A stretch of DNA of 6,995 nucleotides from a virus (lineage: Duplodnaviria; Heunggongvirae; Uroviricota; Caudoviricetes): positions 1 through 6,995 of IMG/VR virus record IMGVR_UViG_2675903654_000024; one strand, written 5' to 3'. Position 1 is the first letter of the stretch. Every line of letters begins with the position of its first letter. Both the position numbers and the translations under genes were made by a program. Shown here piece by piece: positions 1 through 6,995 of this stretch. Below the pieces are notes generated by a model that saw only the letters and a list, made by a program, of their open reading frames with translations, ran no database searches and was not told where the DNA came from.

Positions 1-1032
1 GAAGGCTGGGCCATACTCCTCCGGCAGAAGCAGAAAAAGCTTATTATGCTTCCATCGGAAACGATGATCTGGCAGCCTGAGTTCACAGATAAAACACTCT
101 CCAGGAAACCCGGGGCGGTTCAGATCGCAAGACAGGAACGGCTTGGGACGTCTGCCAATCAAAGCCTGCTTACATCCTTGCGTAACCTACGTGAAGAATT
201 AGCAAACCCTGCAACTGATTTGGATGTTACGTTTGATCTCTTGCGTCAGCACAGAACAGCATTTAGATCTAATGTTCAGGGAGATGCTATGGTCTTCCCC
301 AACCAGGCAAAAGCAGCTACCAATATGGTAGAGAATGCAATGTCAAAAGACCTTCGTAACGCAGTTGCTAAAAACCTCGGTGCATCAGACGCAGCAAAAT
401 ACCTTAAAGCAAATTCCGATTATGCAAACGTTTATAATAAGGTGCTTAATAAAAACATTGCTAACAAGCTCAATAAGGCAAGTAGTGAAGCCAGCCCTGA
501 ACTTATAAGTACCGTTGTATTAAGCAGAAAACCATCTGACGTGAAACGAATCTGGAGCGCACTGGATGATAAGGGGAAAGATGCTATGCGTGCAGCTTAC
601 GTCAGCAAAATAGCGGAAAAGGCCGGGGACTCTCCAGCCAAGTTCATCACTGAAGTTAATAAGCTGAAATCTCAGTCAGGCGGTGAAATTTACAACACTA
701 TTTTTTCTGGAAAGCACATGAAAGAGCTTGATGCTCTTCATGAAGTTCTACAGCAAACAGCAAGGTCAGACACCGCAAATGTAGTAACTCAGACGGGGCA
801 ATTGCAAGCCAACAGGATAAGGACGATTGGCGCAACTGCGACCCTTGGTGTATCACTGGGACTTGAGGCTGGTTTCGGTGCAATCATGCGCTTGTATGAG
901 TCCAAAGCAGCAAGGAATGCTCTCTTACGTCTGGCAAACACCAAAGCAGGAACGCCAGCCTATGAAAGAGCGTTAAGTAACGCTGCAAATGCCGTCAGGC
1001 CGCTGTTTGCTACTGAGGCAACACGGCAGTAA
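1..1032 (+). CDS. Virion ejection / DNA-transfer protein (P22 gp16-like), 3' portion; gene starts upstream of the window
   Basis: The reading frame of the listed 46..1032 ORF is open from base 1 (gaa ggc tgg ... no stop before the Met at 46), and there is no Shine-Dalgarno before the ATG at 46, so the gene most likely continues upstream. The protein is Ala/Lys/Asn/Ser-rich and low in complexity, typical of internal ejection proteins. Its position immediately upstream of the immI module matches the P22 order 16 - (sieA) - mnt - arc - ant - 9. Product assignment is by synteny and composition, not by recognised sequence identity. Confidence 0.5.
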
Positions 1033-1056
1033 CGTATGGGAAATTGGATTCAATCG

Positions 1057-1446
1057 CTAACATTTTCTTTTTACTTTTCCAACAAAAGCTTTGGTTGAAT
1101 CCATATTTCCATAACCGGAAATGGTTTTTGACATTAAAACTGTTCCAGTAGGATGTATTACCCATGAGTCGATAACGCGTTGAGTTTCGCCATTCGCGCC
1201 GATTCCTATGATGGAGTTTTTAGACAATTCTTTGTAAGCCATGCCGCCCGCATCTGTCCCAGAATATGTGATGCTGGCATCTTCACCGCTTGTCTTAATG
1301 ATGAATGTTCCACTAAAACCATCTTCTTCCGGATGGAAATTATTTCGCTCTGAATAGCTTATTCCGCGCATATCTCCAACGACCCAGCACTCTGCTGTAG
1401 CCCCAAAAGATATGAATAAGAACATAGCAGCAAGAAATTGCTTCAC
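1057..1446 (-). CDS. Sec-signal-peptide secreted/periplasmic protein of unknown function (prophage cargo gene)
   Basis: GTG start (plus-strand cac at 1444..1446) preceded on the coding strand by a strong AAGGAGG Shine-Dalgarno (plus-strand cctcctt at 1452..1458, 5-nt spacer). N-terminus MKQFLAAMFLFISFGATA/EC has a basic n-region, hydrophobic core and A-T-A cleavage motif. There is no lipobox (Cys is not at +1). The mature ~111 aa has two Cys, one near each end. Confidence 0.7.
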   Translation of the reverse strand: MKQFLAAMFLFISFGATAECWVVGDMRGISYSERNNFHPEEDGFSGTFIIKTSGEDASITYSGTDAGGMAYKELSKNSIIGIGANGETQRVIDSWVIHPTGTVLMSKTISGYGNMDSTKAFVGKVKRKC

Positions 1447-1814
1447 ACCAACCTCCTTAGTTTTGAGCAGGATACCAGATGATACTTTATTGGTGGAGTG
1501 GTGTGTGAAAACGTGTCAACGACAAACCATCCACAACTTGGACGAATGATTTAGCAAAAAGTGCTATTTTTGGTGTTTGGTGTCATAGAAACGTGAATAG
1601 CTTACTTTTCAACATTGCATGAAACTTGCAGGAAATGTGACATTACCTTATAGGTAACTTCGGCGAAAATGCAGTAAATGTGAAACGTAATGGTTTAAAC
1701 ATGTCGCTAAAGTGGTTGTAAGTTAGCCTCCGAAGGATTGCTGATAGCTTTGTTATAGTATTAAATGACATTTGACATAGTTGGATACTTAGCTGCGGCT
1801 ATCAAGATGGAGGT

Positions 1815-2264
1815 ATGTTTATGCTCACTTGTTTTGATGTCGCCGACTACTTCTTGGCGCATTGCGATGAAGAAAGTGGCGACATTATCTCTAACCTAAA
1901 AATTCAGAAGTTGACGTATTATGCCCAAGGGTTTTCTCTGGTTCTTCTGGGTAAGCCGCTATTTAATGAGAAAATTGAAGCCTGGATGCATGGGCCAGTA
2001 GTTCCTGAATTGTATCGTAAATATAGGGACTGTGGTAACGGCGCTTTACCTGCGCCAGAAAACTTTGACGCTAAAAAATTCAGTGAAGATGAAATTGAAT
2101 TGCTGGATGAGGTGTATAAAGTTTATGGTCAGTTTTCTGCCTGGAAACTGCGCAATATGACTCACGAAGAGCAGCCATGGAAAGATGCTTACATTGAGGG
2201 TGCGGTTAGCCAAGAAATCACACTTGATTCTATGAAAGGTTTTTTCAAAACGTTAATTAACTGA
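1815..2264 (+). CDS. Panacea/DUF4065-domain protein (PanA/SocA-type antitoxin-like)
   Basis: Residues ~27-67 (NLKIQKLTYYAQGFSLVLLGKPLFNEKIEAWMHGPVVPELY) match the signature I recall for DUF4065/Panacea 'phage-associated protein' family members (KLQKLLYYAQ ... GKPLF ... EAWxxGPVxPxxY). Size (147-149 aa) fits the family. GGAGG at 1809..1813 is 1 nt from the ATG at 1815 and 7 nt from the in-frame ATG at 1821, so 1821 is the more likely true start. TTGACA hexamer at 1772..1777 upstream. Confidence 0.7.
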   Translation: MFMLTCFDVADYFLAHCDEESGDIISNLKIQKLTYYAQGFSLVLLGKPLFNEKIEAWMHGPVVPELYRKYRDCGNGALPAPENFDAKKFSEDEIELLDEVYKVYGQFSAWKLRNMTHEEQPWKDAYIEGAVSQEITLDSMKGFFKTLIN

Positions 2265-2269
2265 CGTGT

Positions 2270-2692
2270 ATGTCTAGAGTTAAGGGAAGAATAAAACAGA
2301 GGGATAAAGAGAGCTCTGCTACTGTTGGCCTCTCTATCCATCACGAATCTCATGATGTAGACAAAAGTCCGCCTGTATTTTCTCTTAGATACCTACAAAA
2401 GGGGTATTGCCTAGATTGCTGCCAAAAGCATGAAAAGGCAGCATTTGCAGATAGGCTGTTCAGGTTAAGTCAGATGTCATGGGATGAGATACGAAAATCT
2501 GATAAACACGGGCTTGGGACGGAAAAAATTGCCAGAAACGCGATAAAGGCTCCGATTCCTAAGCATGTTACTCAAGATGTGGATTTCATTGCGTTCAGAT
2601 TTTGCTCTAAGGCACCTATGGTTGGTTATAAGATAGGAGCCACTTTTTATGTCTTATGGCTCGACAGGGAGTTCAAGCTATACAAGCACTAA
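2270..2692 (+). CDS. Hypothetical basic protein; candidate toxin/effector partner co-transcribed with the Panacea-domain gene
   Basis: ATG at 2270 lies 5 nt after the upstream stop (tga 2262..2264) with no independent Shine-Dalgarno, suggesting translational coupling. 140 aa, Lys/Arg/His-rich, no hydrophobic segment, a CLDCC cysteine cluster, and a C-terminus (GYKIGATFYVLWLDREFKLYKH) loosely reminiscent of RelE/ParE-type toxin C-termini; that resemblance is weak and unverified. Followed immediately by a strong intrinsic terminator. Confidence 0.6.
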   Translation: MSRVKGRIKQRDKESSATVGLSIHHESHDVDKSPPVFSLRYLQKGYCLDCCQKHEKAAFADRLFRLSQMSWDEIRKSDKHGLGTEKIARNAIKAPIPKHVTQDVDFIAFRFCSKAPMVGYKIGATFYVLWLDREFKLYKH

Positions 2693-2693
2693 T

Positions 2694-2719
2694 AAAACCC
2701 ACCGTCAGGTGGGTTTTTT
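2694..2719. terminator. Bidirectional rho-independent terminator between the convergent Panacea operon and the zinc-ribbon gene
   Basis: Perfect 10-bp stem AAAACCCACC (2694..2703) / GGTGGGTTTT (2708..2717), 4-nt loop GTCA, T-run 2714..2719 on the plus strand and an A-run on the left flank (U-run for the minus-strand transcript). Lies 1 nt after the stop of 2270..2692 and 17 nt after the stop of the minus-strand gene 2736..2939. Confidence 0.75.
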
Positions 2720-2735
2720 GTTGGAGATAAAATGG

Positions 2736-2939
2736 TTAACCAAATCGATCCTTAAAGCGTCTATCGCTGTTGCGTCTCTCCATTTTACTGTTGCAGTACG
2801 GACAAAGATGCTGTTTCTTTCCATCGATAGTCCATGTGAAGTACTTTTTCTTAAATCCAGCACCACAGATATCGCAACTTCTTGGTTTAAACATGCTGGC
2901 TATGAAGACAAGAACAACAAATCCTATGATCCATTCCAT
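2736..2939 (-). CDS. Small membrane-anchored zinc-ribbon protein (N-terminal transmembrane helix plus CxxC-N20-CxxC)
   Basis: 67 aa. N-terminal hydrophobic segment MEWIIGFVVLVFIASMF, then CDIC ... CPYC with about 20 residues between the Cys pairs (zinc-ribbon pattern), and a basic C-terminal tail. Weak AGGT ribosome-binding site upstream on the minus strand. The two overlapping plus-strand ORFs lack these protein-like features. Confidence 0.6.
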   Translation of the reverse strand: MEWIIGFVVLVFIASMFKPRSCDICGAGFKKKYFTWTIDGKKQHLCPYCNSKMERRNSDRRFKDRFG

Positions 2940-3080
2940 ATCATGTACCTGTTTTAACTTTATTTTTTGTTTTTTAGGGATTAATCAGAAACTTTATCTT
3001 GCGATTAAGCAAAGCTACTAGCTAACAAAAGAGTGCGTATACAATCAATCGTTTCACATCAACCTCAACAAGGAGAAATC

Positions 3081-3266
3081 ATGACCATAGAAGAACGCCT
3101 GAACAACATTGAGTTGAACCAAACCCTGCTTGACCAGCGACTTTCAGATCTTGAGCTTAAAGATCTTGATGCGCAAATATCAGAAGCAGAAGCCAAGCTC
3201 TCCAGCCTAAACCACCGCAAGAAGCAAATCCGCAACAGAATTACTCAGGGACGCGGAAGCTGTTGA
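3081..3266 (+). CDS. Small coiled-coil protein, hypothetical
   Basis: ATG at 3081 is preceded by AAGGAG (3070..3075) at 5-nt spacing. The listed ORF start at 3033 is a GTG without a good ribosome-binding site, so I take 3081 as the start (61 aa). Sequence is Glu/Leu/Lys/Asn-rich (IEERLNNIELNQTLLDQRLSDLELKDLDAQISEAEAKL), consistent with a coiled coil. Its 3' end overlaps the convergent gene 3241..3450 by 26 bp. Confidence 0.5.
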   Translation: MTIEERLNNIELNQTLLDQRLSDLELKDLDAQISEAEAKLSSLNHRKKQIRNRITQGRGSC

Positions 3267-3450
3267 GGTGGGATGCTAGGTCTCTATCGTTAAAATCAAG
3301 GCTGCTAATCATTTCATTGTAAATGGCGTTTTTATCTTCCATTGGCAGTCTTGAGTAAACCAGACACAGAGCATATTTCAGGGAGTTTAGCTCTTTCTCT
3401 AGCTCTTCCTTGCTTGACGTTTTTGACTTAATAAACTGTTTTTTATTCAT
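3241..3450 (-). CDS. Hypothetical 69-aa protein translationally coupled to the end of mnt
   Basis: Its start codon overlaps the mnt stop in an ATGA arrangement (plus-strand tcat at 3447..3450), the classic sign of co-transcription and translational coupling with the upstream Mnt-like gene. No recognisable domain. Confidence 0.55.
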   Translation of the reverse strand: MNKKQFIKSKTSSKEELEKELNSLKYALCLVYSRLPMEDKNAIYNEMISSLDFNDRDLASHLNSFRVPE

Positions 3451-3695
3451 TTTGCATCCTTACCATACATGGTTTTCAGTGTTTCAAGCAGCGCCTCTTT
3501 GAATTTGTCAGCTTCTTGCTGAGCAAATGACTCAACTGACTTTGGCGACCTATCTTCATCAATCGCGGCTTGCAAAATCATGACGATCTCGGAGTTAACA
3601 GAGCGACCATTTTTTGATGCTCTGACAGCAAGAGCCTCGCGCAAAGATTCAGGGATTCTTACCGTAGTTGGAGAAATTGACACACCCTTTGCCAT
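3447..3695 (-). CDS. mnt: Mnt-like ribbon-helix-helix repressor (immI maintenance-of-lysogeny repressor)
   Basis: 82 aa. The N-terminal segment VRIPESLREALAVRASKNGRSVNSEIVMILQAAI aligns with the P22 Mnt motif as I recall it (FRMPMEVREKLKFRAEANGRSMNSELLQIVQDAL). Divergent from an Arc-like gene, as in P22 immI. AGGTG Shine-Dalgarno upstream on the minus strand. Confidence 0.85.
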   Translation of the reverse strand: MAKGVSISPTTVRIPESLREALAVRASKNGRSVNSEIVMILQAAIDEDRSPKSVESFAQQEADKFKEALLETLKTMYGKDAK

Positions 3696-3809
3696 AGCAC
3701 ACCTTTGGTATTCAATTTGATATCAAAGTGTATGCAAAAGAAATTTGACTAGATATACTCACTTTGCTATCTTTTGTATTCGAAAAGAGTCGCTTGTGCG
3801 GAGGGTAAC
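3696..3809. promoter_or_regulatory. Divergent immI control region (candidate Pant, Pmnt and Arc/Mnt operators)
   Basis: 114-bp gap between divergent mnt and arc. Plus strand: TTGACT (3745..3750), 17 bp, TATCTT (3768..3773) as candidate Pant, about 35 nt upstream of arc. Inverted repeat AGATA (3751..3755) / TATCT (3768..3772) sits inside that spacer, where the Arc operator lies in P22. Perfect 12-bp palindrome TTTGATATCAAA at 3716..3727, 21 bp upstream of the mnt start. Operator assignments are by analogy to P22 only. Confidence 0.55.
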
Positions 3810-3962
3810 ATGGAGAAAGAAATAAGTAAGATTTTGGTAAGGATGCCGCAGTCGTTAAAGGACGCTATCGGTAGCAGGGCAAAGGAAGAATGCCGGTCGT
3901 TTAACTCGGAAGTGATTAAGCGGTTGATAGACAGCCTGAAGAGAGAGGGGATAACGGTGTGA
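3810..3962 (+). CDS. arc: Arc-like ribbon-helix-helix repressor
   Basis: The listed ORF starts at 3774, but the in-frame ATG at 3810 is preceded by GGAGGG (3800..3805), giving 50 aa. The sequence KILVRMPQSLKDAIGSRAKEECRSFNSEVIKRLIDSLKREG aligns with P22 Arc as I recall it (FNLRWPREVLDLVRKVAEENGRSVNSEIYQRVMESFKKEG). Divergent from mnt, upstream of ant. Confidence 0.85.
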   Translation: MEKEISKILVRMPQSLKDAIGSRAKEECRSFNSEVIKRLIDSLKREGITV

Positions 3963-4114
3963 TTCGCTTGGATGCAGTAGTCAAAGAGATTGCGATTACC
4001 ATTTTAAGACCAAATTTTGTTCATGGCGAATCATTTGGCACGAACGAAAAATTGAGAAGAGAAAGAGTATTCAGTGGCAAGCGCACATTTTCAGAAGTGA
4101 TGCTTGATGCGGCA

Positions 4115-4194
4115 AAGAAATCAAAACAGTGAAGCCCCAACTGCGGTAACAGTCAGGGCTTCGGTTGTCGGTAAATTCGTGGAGAAAAACCAAC
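4115..4194 (-). ncRNA. Candidate sar-like antisense RNA covering the ant ribosome-binding site (approximate ends)
   Basis: Minus-strand extended -10 (TGcTATACT; plus-strand AGTATA at 4201..4206 with gca at 4207..4209) would start transcription near 4193, running leftward across the ant Shine-Dalgarno (GGAGA 4181..4185). The hairpin at 4131..4162 forms a fully paired 13-bp stem (two G-U pairs, loop UUACCG) only in the minus-strand RNA, followed by U-rich ACUGUUUUGAUUUCUUU; the plus-strand version has two C-A mismatches. P22 has a ~69-nt sar RNA with this role. Ends are inferred, not measured. Confidence 0.4.
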
Positions 4195-5097
4195 ATGAAT
4201 AGTATAGCAATTTTAGAAGCAGTGAACACCTCTTACGTACCATTCAACGGTCAGCAAATTATCACCGCCATGGCTGCCGGAGTTGCATATGTTGCGATGA
4301 AGCCAATCGTTGAAAACCTTGGAATGAGCTGGTCAACGCAGCAAACAAAACTCATGAAGCAGATTAGCAAATTCAACTGTGTTCATATGAACATGGTTGC
4401 CGCTGATGGGAAGCTTCGTAAGCTACTCTGCCTTCCTTTGAAGAAGTTAAATGGATGGCTGTTCAGCATCAACCCCGAGAAAGTTCGAGCTGACATCCGC
4501 GATAAACTGATTCAGTACCAGGAAGAATGCTTTACTGTACTGCATGACTACTGGACAAAGGGAAAGGCAGAAAATGCACGTAAGAAAACATCTGTTGATG
4601 ACAGGACTCCGCTTCGTGATGCTGTAAATATGCTAGTCAGCAAAAAGCATCTAATGTACCCAGAAGCTTATGCAATGATTCATCAGCGTTTCAATGTGGA
4701 AAGTATTGAAGAGCTTGATGCATCTCAGATACCGCAAGCCGTAGAGTACATCCACAGGGTAGTGCTTGAAGGTGAGTTCATCGGCAAACAAGAGAAGAAG
4801 CCCAACGGGCTTTCCGCAAAAGAAACAGACATCCTTGTATGGCTGTGGGATTATGCCAACCGCTCACAGGCATTATTCCGCGAACTGTATCCGGCGCTGA
4901 AACAAATTCAATCGAACTATTCCGGCAGATGTCATGACTGCGGTTATGAGTTCTCCCGTATTATCGATATAGCGAGAGACGTTTTAATCAATCACACACT
5001 AGATGTTGATATTAATGAGCCAGACGGACCAACGAATCGTTCCGCATGGATGAGACTTAAGAATAAAGAATTACCTCCTTCAGTACATAACTACTGA
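4195..5097 (+). CDS. ant: Antirepressor Ant (P22 Ant-like)
   Basis: The listed ORF begins at a TTG (4165), but the in-frame ATG at 4195 follows GGAGA (4181..4185) and gives exactly 300 aa, the length of P22 Ant. It is directly downstream of arc and upstream of the tailspike gene, as in P22 immI. Identity is by synteny and length; my recall of the P22 Ant sequence itself is partial. Confidence 0.8.
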
Positions 5098-5115
5098 CAG
5101 ATAACCAACGCAACG

Positions 5116-5140
5116 ACCCAGCTTCGGCTGGGTTTTTTTT
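5116..5140 (+). terminator. Rho-independent terminator downstream of ant
   Basis: Stem ACCCAGC (5116..5122) / GCTGGGT (5127..5133) with a TTCG tetraloop, followed by an 8-T run (5133..5140), 19 nt after the ant stop codon. Confidence 0.8.
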
Positions 5141-5198
5141 ATGCCCAAAATTCACCGTAGCCATGCTGCGGCGATTCCTTGCATCTGGAGCAAATTAA

Positions 5199-6995
5199 AT
5201 GACAGACATTACAGCCAATGTGATCGTATCGATGCCTTCGCAACTCTTCACTATGGCGCGTTCTTTTAAAGCGGTTGCCAATGGCAAAATTTATATTGGT
5301 AAAATTGACACTGACCCTGTAAATCCTGAAAACCAGATTCAGGTTTATGTGGAGAACGAAGATGGTTCTCACGTCCCTGTTTCGCAACCAATCACCATTA
5401 ACGCTGCTGGTTATCCGGTATATAACGGACAGATTGCCAAGTTCGTAACTGTACAGAATCACTCCATGGCTGTTTATGATGCATATGGTGCACAACAATT
5501 CTATTATCCTGATCTACTTAAATATTCTCCAGACCAGTTAAGGGCTGAGCTTTCTGGCCCTGATGGCGCATCTCTGGTTGGTTATGGAGGCACAACCGTA
5601 AAGATTGAGCTGGAGATCTTGAAAGCTACACATGATTCATTAATTGATAAAACAGGATTTAACGCTATTGGCCGCTTTCTCAATCTTTCAGAGCTTCGCT
5701 CCTGTGTTCCAGAGGAGGCAGGGCAGATTGTATACGTAGCATCAGCAGCTAGCACTACACATGCTGAAAACCACCTTGGTGGCGGCTTTTTCGAGTCTGT
5801 TGATAACATTCAGGCGTGGGCTGATGATGGTGGAATTGTAATCAAGCCAGAAACTGGAACGATGGTATGGAGACGAATTAATTTTACCACTTACGACATG
5901 CAATTTTGGGGGGTGAAACCTGACGGAGTCACAGATAACGCAACAGCTATAACTCTTGCAACTAACTTTGCCCGCTCAAACAAATGCATTCTAGAGGCTC
6001 CTGCTGGAAACATAAATACATCAAAAACAATCCCAATTTATGACAATATGGGAATTAGAGGACAGGGAAAGGCTGAAGCGACAGTTTTTTATAAAACAAC
6101 AAATGACAAAATAGATCTCACAAAAAATGGAGAAGTAATTCTTCAGGTGGATGCATTATGTGCTTTTATACCAAAGCAATGGGATCTAACAGATAACTCA
6201 ATGAGTTCATTTTGTGTTAACGGTAGAGTTGAAAACTGCATGTTTAGAAGGCTTGGCTTAACACAAGAAAATGTAGATTCTTATAGAAATTATTACGGAC
6301 TGTTTTTAGGAAAATCAGCAGCACCAGTTATCAGACAGTCAATTTTTGAATGTGCTTATATCGGATGCTTCTCTTATGTGCCGTTCTCTGGCGTAATGGA
6401 AATGGTCGGTTTCCCACAATATCCAGGGAAAGGATATGCTGGAGTTTTATTTGAAGATTTTAGGGATGGTCAAATAAAAGTAATAGGCACTTCTATGGAT
6501 ATGCGCCTTGTTCAGGTTAACGGTTACCAGTTGTCATTTAGAATGTCAGGAATGCAATATACCACCATGACCAATTGTACTGCTGAAAACTGCACGCCAA
6601 TGGATGGGGAGTCAATTTGCTATGCATTTGATTTTGTAAATCCGTATTGCATTGTCATGAATACTTGTGCAACAGAATTTGTTAAGGGTGGGCAACTTCG
6701 TGTTAGCGTTCAGGGAAACCCATCATTCAGACCATCTATTATTGTCAATGGCTTTCTGCCAATTGATCAACAAAGCCCGGTAGTGCAAACACCTATAATA
6801 GATATTGATAATGGTGGCGTAGTTGAAATGAGTGTCATATTAAATGGTGGAGATTGGGCTATAAATCCATCTGCTACAAATTTAGCCGTACCAAGAGCAA
6901 GCGGAAATGGGTTGAAAGCAAGGTTAATAGGTGTAAACGGGTCGCCTGTTTCGATCTGGAGCGTGTCTCCTGGCGCAGATGTGAAGGAGTTCTAA
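5199..6995 (+). CDS. Tailspike protein: P22 gp9-like N-terminal head-binding domain fused to a divergent receptor-binding domain
   Basis: GGAG at 5187..5190, 8 nt before the ATG. The first ~113 aa ([34 protein letters not shown] ... DGSHV ... INAAG ... VYNGQ ... VTVQ.HSMA.YDA ... LKYSPDQ) closely match the P22 gp9 head-binding domain as I recall it. The remaining ~485 aa has no similarity I recognise to the P22 receptor-binding domain; it is Asn/Gly/Cys-rich with recurring VNG/LNG/IDNGG motifs suggesting a beta-helix or beta-rich fold. Complete ORF ending at taa 6993..6995. Confidence 0.9.

Follow-up and report, generated by a model that had tools for sequence, protein, structure and literature searches.

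The gene in the sieA slot

The window analyzed here, the whole stretch of 6,995 nucleotides of IMG/VR virus record IMGVR_UViG_2675903654_000024 (positions 1 to 6,995, Caudoviricetes), comes from a P22-like (Lederbergvirus-type) prophage, of which it represents the late region at its right end. Our subject is one small leftward open reading frame (ORF) in it, hereafter the focal gene (Table 1). This gene occupies the slot that holds sieA in P22, with gene 16 on one side and the immI region on the other. A gap of 24 bp separates it from the convergent gene 16-type gene, the arrangement that gene 16 and sieA have in P22; like SieA, the focal protein is encoded between genes 16 and 9 of a P22-like prophage. 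Coverage of the window stays below 80% in every phage record and every complete E. coli genome; the closest phage record is that of Salmonella phage Emek, in which the ORF is gp14. It is annotated there as "orf129, similar to Sf6 gene 38," and the likeness to Sf6 was thus already on record.

Table 1. Positions of the genes and other features discussed in the text
Feature	Position	Strand	Remarks
Gene 16-type ejection (DNA transfer) protein gene, 3' part	46..1032	+	
Focal gene (Hex-family ORF)	1057..1446	-	129-aa precursor; GTG start 1446-1444, stop 1059-1057
Mature domain, predicted 8-9-stranded up-and-down beta-barrel	1060..1392	-	AlphaFold predicted local distance difference test (pLDDT) 88.8
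Predicted Sec-type signal peptide, codons 1-18	1393..1446	-	predicted signal peptidase I cut before E19
34-bp conserved block (GTG, Shine-Dalgarno sequence, 20-nt leader)	1444..1477	-	joint of cassette slot
Shine-Dalgarno sequence AAGGAGG	1452..1458	-	5 nt upstream of GTG
Weak candidate promoters TTCACA-19-TATCAT and TTTTCA-16-TAAAGT	1469..1511	-	position weight matrix (PWM)
Non-coding gap	1447-1814		368 bp
Rest of gap, travels with Panacea module	1478..1814	.	nearly invariant in five prophages
Panacea/SocA-like antitoxin gene	1815 (or 1821)-2264	+	PF13274, E 2.2e-24
140-aa Panacea partner gene	2270-2692	+	
mnt-like gene (immI region)	3447-3695	-	
arc (immI region)	3774-3962	+	
sar RNA (immI region)	4128-4194	-	Rfam RF00262, 87 bits, E 5.8e-18
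ant (immI region)	4165-5097	+	
Tailspike gene	from 5199	+	

The focal ORF is a genuine gene. The original prediction, made from the letters of the DNA, had described a GTG start behind a strong Shine-Dalgarno sequence, and both are there. The GTG start is supported because relatives starting with ATG align at the same codon and because the same block of leader, Shine-Dalgarno sequence and GTG heads sieA in P22. In the Escherichia coli prophages L009 (7001-7369) and L010 (4000-4368), RefSeq/PGAP places the start at the ATG of codon 8, giving a protein of 122 aa (e.g., WP_063610642.1). That start is unlikely, since it leaves an uncharged signal peptide of 11 residues, drops the n-region and ignores the strong Shine-Dalgarno sequence. 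The original prediction also hinged on the frame being conserved as coding sequence in related elements. This is what we found: the ratio of nonsynonymous to synonymous substitution rates (dN/dS) of the mature part is 0.09-0.20 against copies that have diverged at dS ~0.14, which indicates purifying selection, and the gene is present in 147 of 5,426 complete E. coli genomes (~2.7%), in the chromosome every time. The copy in Salmonella phage ST-35 (3051-3446, minus strand) has a frameshift near its 3' end (...GKVKENVSD) and has lost the conserved C-terminal cysteine; it could be either a decaying copy or a sequencing error.

The 34-bp block at the head of the gene recurs, unchanged or almost unchanged, in 91 phage records. 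P22 has it at the start of sieA, directly beside the annotated (putative) promoter PsieA, and it also heads hkcB in HK620 and gene 14 in epsilon34. Leftward of the block, the loci that we collected (L001-L004, L007-L010, L020 and L021) encode five unrelated proteins, each with an N-terminal hydrophobic segment. SieA and the Hex-type protein to which the focal gene corresponds are two of these; the others are HkcB/gp14 (a membrane anchor plus a coiled coil), a membrane protein of 62 aa and one of 75 aa that has two hydrophobic segments. The block behaves as a cassette slot whose translation-initiation region stays fixed. A tblastn search with P22 SieA gave no match in the window or in any locus carrying a Hex-type gene, and the motif FxRYPxEAxxFNK of SieA (types A-C) is absent from the focal sequence.

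The predicted signal peptide, MKQFLAAMFLFISFGATA, is followed by E-C-W. It has a lysine at position 2, a hydrophobic core (FLAAMFLFISF) and A-T-A at positions -3 to -1, as judged by rules. For family-wide statistics on signal peptides and cysteines we used 131 distinct members of the family. The (-3,-1) rule is satisfied at the same aligned place in 115 of them, the n-region has a net positive charge in 121, and the median length of the signal peptide is 19. The conserved cysteine that follows is itself followed by W, Y or F in 124 members. The clean Sec signal peptide of the original prediction is therefore borne out across the family by the (-3,-1) rule, the hydrophobic core and the n-region charge. 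We also considered a lipoprotein cleaved by signal peptidase II and rejected it: the sequence reads T-A-E-C, with a glutamate at -1, which does not fit the lipobox [LVI][ASTVI][GAS]C, and only 12 of the 131 members are compatible with a lipobox.

The mature protein has 111 aa (~12 kDa, isoelectric point ~6.1), of which 25 are charged, and a grand average of hydropathy of -0.35. The only hydrophobic segment of the precursor is the cleavable N-terminal one, with none after the signal peptide. For the mature domain AlphaFold predicts, with high confidence, a small soluble up-and-down beta-barrel. A soluble barrel is favored over an outer-membrane one because most strands carry charged residues on either face and F or W is not the last residue in any member of the family; the last strand is rich in lysine. 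Integral outer-membrane barrels of eight strands (OmpX/Ail/Lom, NspA, OmpW) were rejected as models, since the hydrophobic, lipid-facing strand face and the aromatic C-terminal beta-signal are absent. Cys20, at the start of the first strand, is kept in all 131 members, and Cys129, just past the last strand, in 129; equally, 129 members have two or four cysteines in the mature protein. Such conserved, even numbers of cysteines are as expected for an extracytoplasmic protein with disulfide bonds, and Cys20 and Cys129 would be the partners.

No model of Pfam, NCBIfam or PADLOC matches the focal protein, which falls in PHROG 2651 ("unknown function"). The family gathered 44 clusters in a word-indexed profile search of large protein collections and 125 clusters at 50% identity in an exhaustive search with a hidden Markov model (HMM; E <= 1e-3), nearly all of them of 120-140 aa. 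A third large protein search, with a wide alignment, added few members and gave three distant ones for context look-ups. When 106 family members were scanned against Pfam there was no relevant match, MliC/PliC included. Sequence searches of the PDB, with the single protein and with the profile, returned noise only, including a weak NanoLuc/FABP-like match with E ~1. The structural matches of the predicted barrel were to generic small barrels only. The closest known barrels are small, soluble and of 8-10 strands: calycin-like proteins (FABP/CRABP, lipocalins, avidins), the neisserial NHBA, HpuA and fHbp, the Cap15 barrel and the PliC/MliC-type PhiA. A lysozyme inhibitor of the MliC/PliC kind was rejected, as neither the Pfam MliC model nor a specific structural match pointed to one. 

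The key relative is Hex of phage 434, and the relationship is solid. Sequence comparison identifies the focal protein as a full-length, distant homologue (27% identity) of 434 Hex and Sf6 gp38. A tblastn search of phage genomes matched 434, lambda imm434, Sf6 (gene 38), HK446 and HK633 at 26-27% identity over 100% of the query. The BLASTP pair with 434 Hex has E 3e-11, and hhalign of the family profile against Hex gives a probability of 99.5% (E 2.9e-22, 128 columns). Both the focal protein (E 9.5e-60) and 434 Hex (E 1.4e-58) match phrog_2651. The focal protein also carries the signature of the Hex family, a signal peptide followed by x-C-[WYF] and a C-terminal G-x-C. The family would be extracytoplasmic, because the signal peptide and the pair of N- and C-terminal cysteines are conserved among the relatives, and we are highly confident that the focal gene encodes an exported Hex-family prophage protein.

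The upstream gap and the neighboring genes

The original prediction had drawn attention to a long, AT-rich non-coding region shared divergently with the Panacea operon. The length and the neighbor are right, but the region is AT-rich only mildly: its GC content is 38.6% against 42.4% for the window, at the 12.6th percentile of 368-bp windows, and the other gaps in the window have 28-31%. The further suggestion, that the long upstream region reflects regulated expression of the focal gene, possibly silencing by a nucleoid protein, was not supported. Silencing of the H-NS type on grounds of AT-richness was rejected, as the composition of the gap is not unusual; nor does the gap hold a consensus promoter above background or a signal of RNA structure, and it travels with Panacea. 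Sequence comparison assigns it to the Panacea module and not to the focal gene. E212, EC.P3 and phiv205-1 share positions 1437-1900 of the window, with Panacea, but carry a different leftward gene. Conversely, ST-35 and the E. coli prophage L009 share the focal gene and diverge from the window 31 bp upstream of the GTG, where a divergent hkcC-type gene starts, as in HK620. The joined arrangement of gene, gap and Panacea occurs in only 25 of the 147 E. coli genomes with the gene, and in the remaining genomes the match stops 18-53 bp before the GTG. In ST-35 and HK620-like prophages the start of the hkcC-type gene lies only 30 bp from the GTG, so there the promoter of each gene must lie inside the other. 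The hkcC-type gene itself (PHROG 1365; ST-35 3477-3842 and L009 7421-7786, both on the plus strand) has a HECAH (HExxH-like) motif.

What drives the focal gene is less evident. A scan of the gap for consensus sigma-70 promoters found none, against 2.6 expected. The PWM gave two weak candidates, which sit, relative to the block, where the annotated putative PsieA of P22 lies; the best minus-strand score in the gap equals the shuffled mean, so that no promoter stands above background. A regulatory RNA or structured leader was ruled out, as Rfam gave no match in the gap and the folding z-scores were -0.5 and -1.0. The gap is almost invariant in five prophages, in one of which the coding sequence of Panacea is only ~86% identical. 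This conservation is not accounted for by any ORF, RNA family, fold signal or strong promoter. The two divergent promoters may both lie in the gap, or it may act as a joint for recombination.

The Panacea module, 1815..2692, is a neighboring unit, separate from that of the focal gene. Panacea probably starts at its second ATG (1821), 7 nt past a GGAGG, because GTG replaces the first ATG in Emek and in one E. coli prophage; the gap would then measure 374 bp. The 140-aa partner belongs to PHROG 8366, matches the C-terminal part of the PADLOC model NsnC (E 1.8e-7) and weakly matches NCBIfam MAG6450. It is likely the toxin in a toxin-antitoxin pair of the PanA type whose insertion point was between the mnt operon and the sieA slot. 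There is a terminator-like hairpin at 2694-2716. A few small ORFs separate the Panacea pair from the immI region. One of these, of 67 aa (2736-2939, minus strand), has an N-terminal hydrophobic segment, then CxxC...CxxC and weak zinc-ribbon matches, and may encode a membrane-anchored zinc-ribbon protein. The P22-type mnt-arc-sar-ant module is complete, since the sar antisense RNA was matched as well. In some Panacea-carrying prophages a gene for a ClpP-like protease subunit follows mnt in the leftward operon (L020 3801-4337; L021 3809-4345), and the window has a 69-aa ORF (3241-3450) at the corresponding position. At the other end of the focal gene, an inverted repeat of 19 nt (1035-1053 and 1095-1113, 84% complementary, 41 nt apart) reaches across the gap to the gene 16-type gene and into the final codons of the focal gene. 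No run of T follows it, and it may form a bidirectional 3' structure.

Possible roles of the focal protein

The contexts of the relatives bear on the question of function. Each of the ten contexts sampled is a prophage. In close relatives (86% identity) the gene comes third in an mnt-rap1a-gene operon, after a gap of 15 nt, and a relative with 52% identity overlaps the stop codon of mnt by 4 nt, which parallels the overlap of hex and cI in 434. Relatives with 31% and 25% identity are flanked by the gene 16-type gene and the tailspike gene and run on the opposite strand, and those with 50% and 37% are found between cI and N, again on the opposite strand. Two more stand beside a tailspike gene with an integrase remnant and beside large ejection-like genes. 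These are the classical places for genes expressed by prophages. The gene between mnt and the Hex-type gene (L012-L015 4650-4985; L011 4405-4740) is of the Rap1a/Tai family of type VI secretion immunity proteins; its product, a second periplasmic protein, would be made along with the repressor.

The original prediction had placed the focal gene among lysogenic-conversion factors, such as exclusion proteins. The part that holds is exported prophage cargo; given the Hex homology and the sieA slot, exclusion, which we infer, is the best supported guess among the functions it had listed. We propose, with about even confidence, that the focal protein is a prophage-expressed periplasmic factor of superinfection exclusion. 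Transcription in the lysogen would run counter to the late operon and start at a weak promoter a short way upstream of the block; relatives would use PsieA or come last in the mnt operon. Sec would export the precursor, signal peptidase I would cut it behind A18, and DsbA would then join C20 to C129, so that the first strand of the barrel is clamped to the last. Once in the periplasm, the protein could keep superinfecting P22-like phages from delivering their DNA. It would most plausibly do so by binding to the conduit of ejection proteins (gp7, gp20, gp16), to the needle or to an envelope factor that these need. The effect would be equivalent to that of SieA, produced from the periplasmic side.

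Several points weigh against this proposal. The rightward Panacea operon cuts the focal gene off from Pmnt and no promoter stands out, so that expression in the lysogen is putative. Identity to Hex is only 27%, and the specificity of the focal protein may differ. Phenotypes in the Hex family, exclusion and lower spontaneous induction, are known only for 434 Hex. The predicted fold is generic and offers no functional clue, and both the cleavage site and the C20-C129 disulfide are predictions. Finally, published biochemistry puts Hex in the cytoplasm, where it blocks the RecA-stimulated cleavage of the 434 and P22 repressors (Shkilnyj et al. 2013, PMC3564112).

The first rival explanation is that the protein is a periplasmic conversion factor of another kind, which aids the host as an inhibitor of lysozyme or of a type VI secretion or colicin effector, or as a barrel for a small ligand. 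This seems unlikely to us. A small periplasmic beta-barrel, as predicted here, would suit such a role, and the Rap1a/Tai immunity gene adjoins the gene in close relatives. Yet none of the 106 members scanned matches MliC/PliC or another Pfam family and PADLOC gave no match. Moreover, the only genetic phenotype known in the Hex family is phage exclusion, and each of the ten sampled contexts is a prophage slot linked to an ejection-protein, tailspike or immunity region.

The second is that the protein does what was published for 434 Hex, i.e., that a cytoplasmic protein or fragment of it hinders the RecA-stimulated autocleavage of C2/cI-type repressors and thereby lowers spontaneous induction. 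In 434, hex is cotranscribed with cI from PRM, and the exclusion of P22 by a lambda imm434 lysogen of Salmonella needs Hex, hence the name "heterologous exclusion" (PMC3564112). Deletion of hex raises spontaneous induction 30-fold in a recA-dependent manner, a purified 6-kDa fragment, sHex, inhibits RecA-stimulated cleavage of both repressors in vitro, and sHex in trans partly complements the defect (7-fold); full-length Hex is toxic on overexpression, and the authors do not mention a signal peptide (PMC3564112). Members of the family also often share an operon with repressor genes. The induction and cleavage results and this linkage speak for repressor protection, but the signal peptide and the paired cysteines, found family-wide, place the native protein outside the cytoplasm, and this export signal, read from sequence, conflicts with the published mechanism. 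sHex starts at "Glu43" of a 158-aa frame that has 24 extra N-terminal residues, and Glu43 directly follows A-N-S in TTSANS/ECW, where the slash marks the predicted signal-peptidase site (phage 434, OL657227, 2429-2905). It ends at Asn79 of the 134-aa protein; sHex thus comprises residues 19-79, about half of the predicted barrel, and it was purified through guanidine hydrochloride. The linkage to repressor genes is equally explained by co-expression in the lysogen; the partner mnt lacks a RecA-cleavable Peptidase_S24 domain, and many members lie in the sieA slot, far from any repressor. Envelope exclusion fits better than direct action on repressor or RecA because the sequence evidence places the native family outside the cytoplasm, and we regard repressor protection as improbable for the focal protein.

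A third possibility, very improbable in our opinion, is that the gene is silent cargo, an intact ORF left promoterless after Panacea was inserted between it and the mnt operon: the promoter scans and the frameshifted ST-35 copy would agree with this, but the ORF is intact behind a strong Shine-Dalgarno sequence, Emek and 25 E. coli genomes retain gene, gap and Panacea together, sieA of P22 works from a weak "putative" promoter in the equivalent place with low-level transcription (Leavitt et al. 2024, PMC10883804), and every Panacea-carrying phage examined has some leftward envelope gene at the same GTG behind nearly invariant upstream DNA, which argues that this DNA drives leftward expression.

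Tentatively, and with more doubt than conviction, we suggest that all Hex proteins, 434 Hex included, are periplasmic disulfide-clamped barrels that stop P22-like DNA delivery and have repeatedly replaced SieA in the same slot. The cytoplasmic mechanism through RecA and repressor would then be indirect, or an artefact of a fragment that is half a barrel and starts at the signal-peptidase site. In the library searched, we found no paper noting that the export signal is family-wide, that Hex is connected to the sieA slot or that the N terminus of sHex falls at a signal-peptidase site. The focal gene is an ordinary moron, but it points to a possible periplasmic mechanism of exclusion and to a probable mis-assignment in the literature. 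The idea links the exclusion of P22 by the 434 prophage, via hex, to the periplasm, where the ejection proteins of P22 build their DNA conduit. If true, it would add a soluble, periplasmic class of injection blockers, and the published mechanism of Hex would need re-reading.

Comparison with known exclusion systems

Some small phage proteins with signal peptides act extracytoplasmically on incoming phages, as do Llp of T5, Cor of phi80 and N15, Sp and Imm of T4, and Ltp of the Streptococcus phage TP-J34. Llp, Cor and Ltp are lipoproteins, whereas the focal protein has no lipobox. None of these exported or lipoprotein exclusion proteins is known to be tied to it in sequence or in specific fold.

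The comparison with 434 Hex, annotated as "repressor protection protein," and with its named relatives (the Sf6 gene 38 protein and the HK446 and HK633 ORFs next to cI) is closer. Hex and the focal protein share PHROG 2651, size (134 and 129 aa), a signal peptide with a small-x-small site followed by E-C-W and a C-terminal VGxVxGxC. The genes of both lie in a prophage slot of the kind where accessory genes are expressed in the lysogen, with expression of the focal gene putative. They differ in the setting of their genes. The start of hex is annotated as overlapping the end of cI, by 4 nt in locus coordinates, and Sf6 gene 38 stands at the same locus coordinates, beside repressor operators. The focal gene, in contrast, lies in the sieA slot of the late region, convergent with gene 16, and shares no operon with a repressor; identity is only 27%.

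The focal protein and P22 SieA share the genomic slot, the orientation, the 34-bp block of leader, Shine-Dalgarno sequence and GTG, and an envelope-directed product, and the process proposed as target is the same, DNA delivery through the gp7/gp20/gp16 conduit. They have no sequence similarity, and SieA is a multi-pass protein of the inner membrane, whereas the focal protein is predicted to be a cleaved, soluble periplasmic barrel. SieA is expressed by the prophage and blocks the gp16/gp20 conduit, with escape mutations mapping to gp16 and gp20, and only 22 of 66 sequenced P22-like phages carry its gene (PMC10883804). In the P22-like phages that lack sieA, the content of the slot is mostly unannotated, and the focal gene supplies one answer to what it may hold. 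The shared block shows how unrelated genes for envelope cargo swap into a single expression slot.

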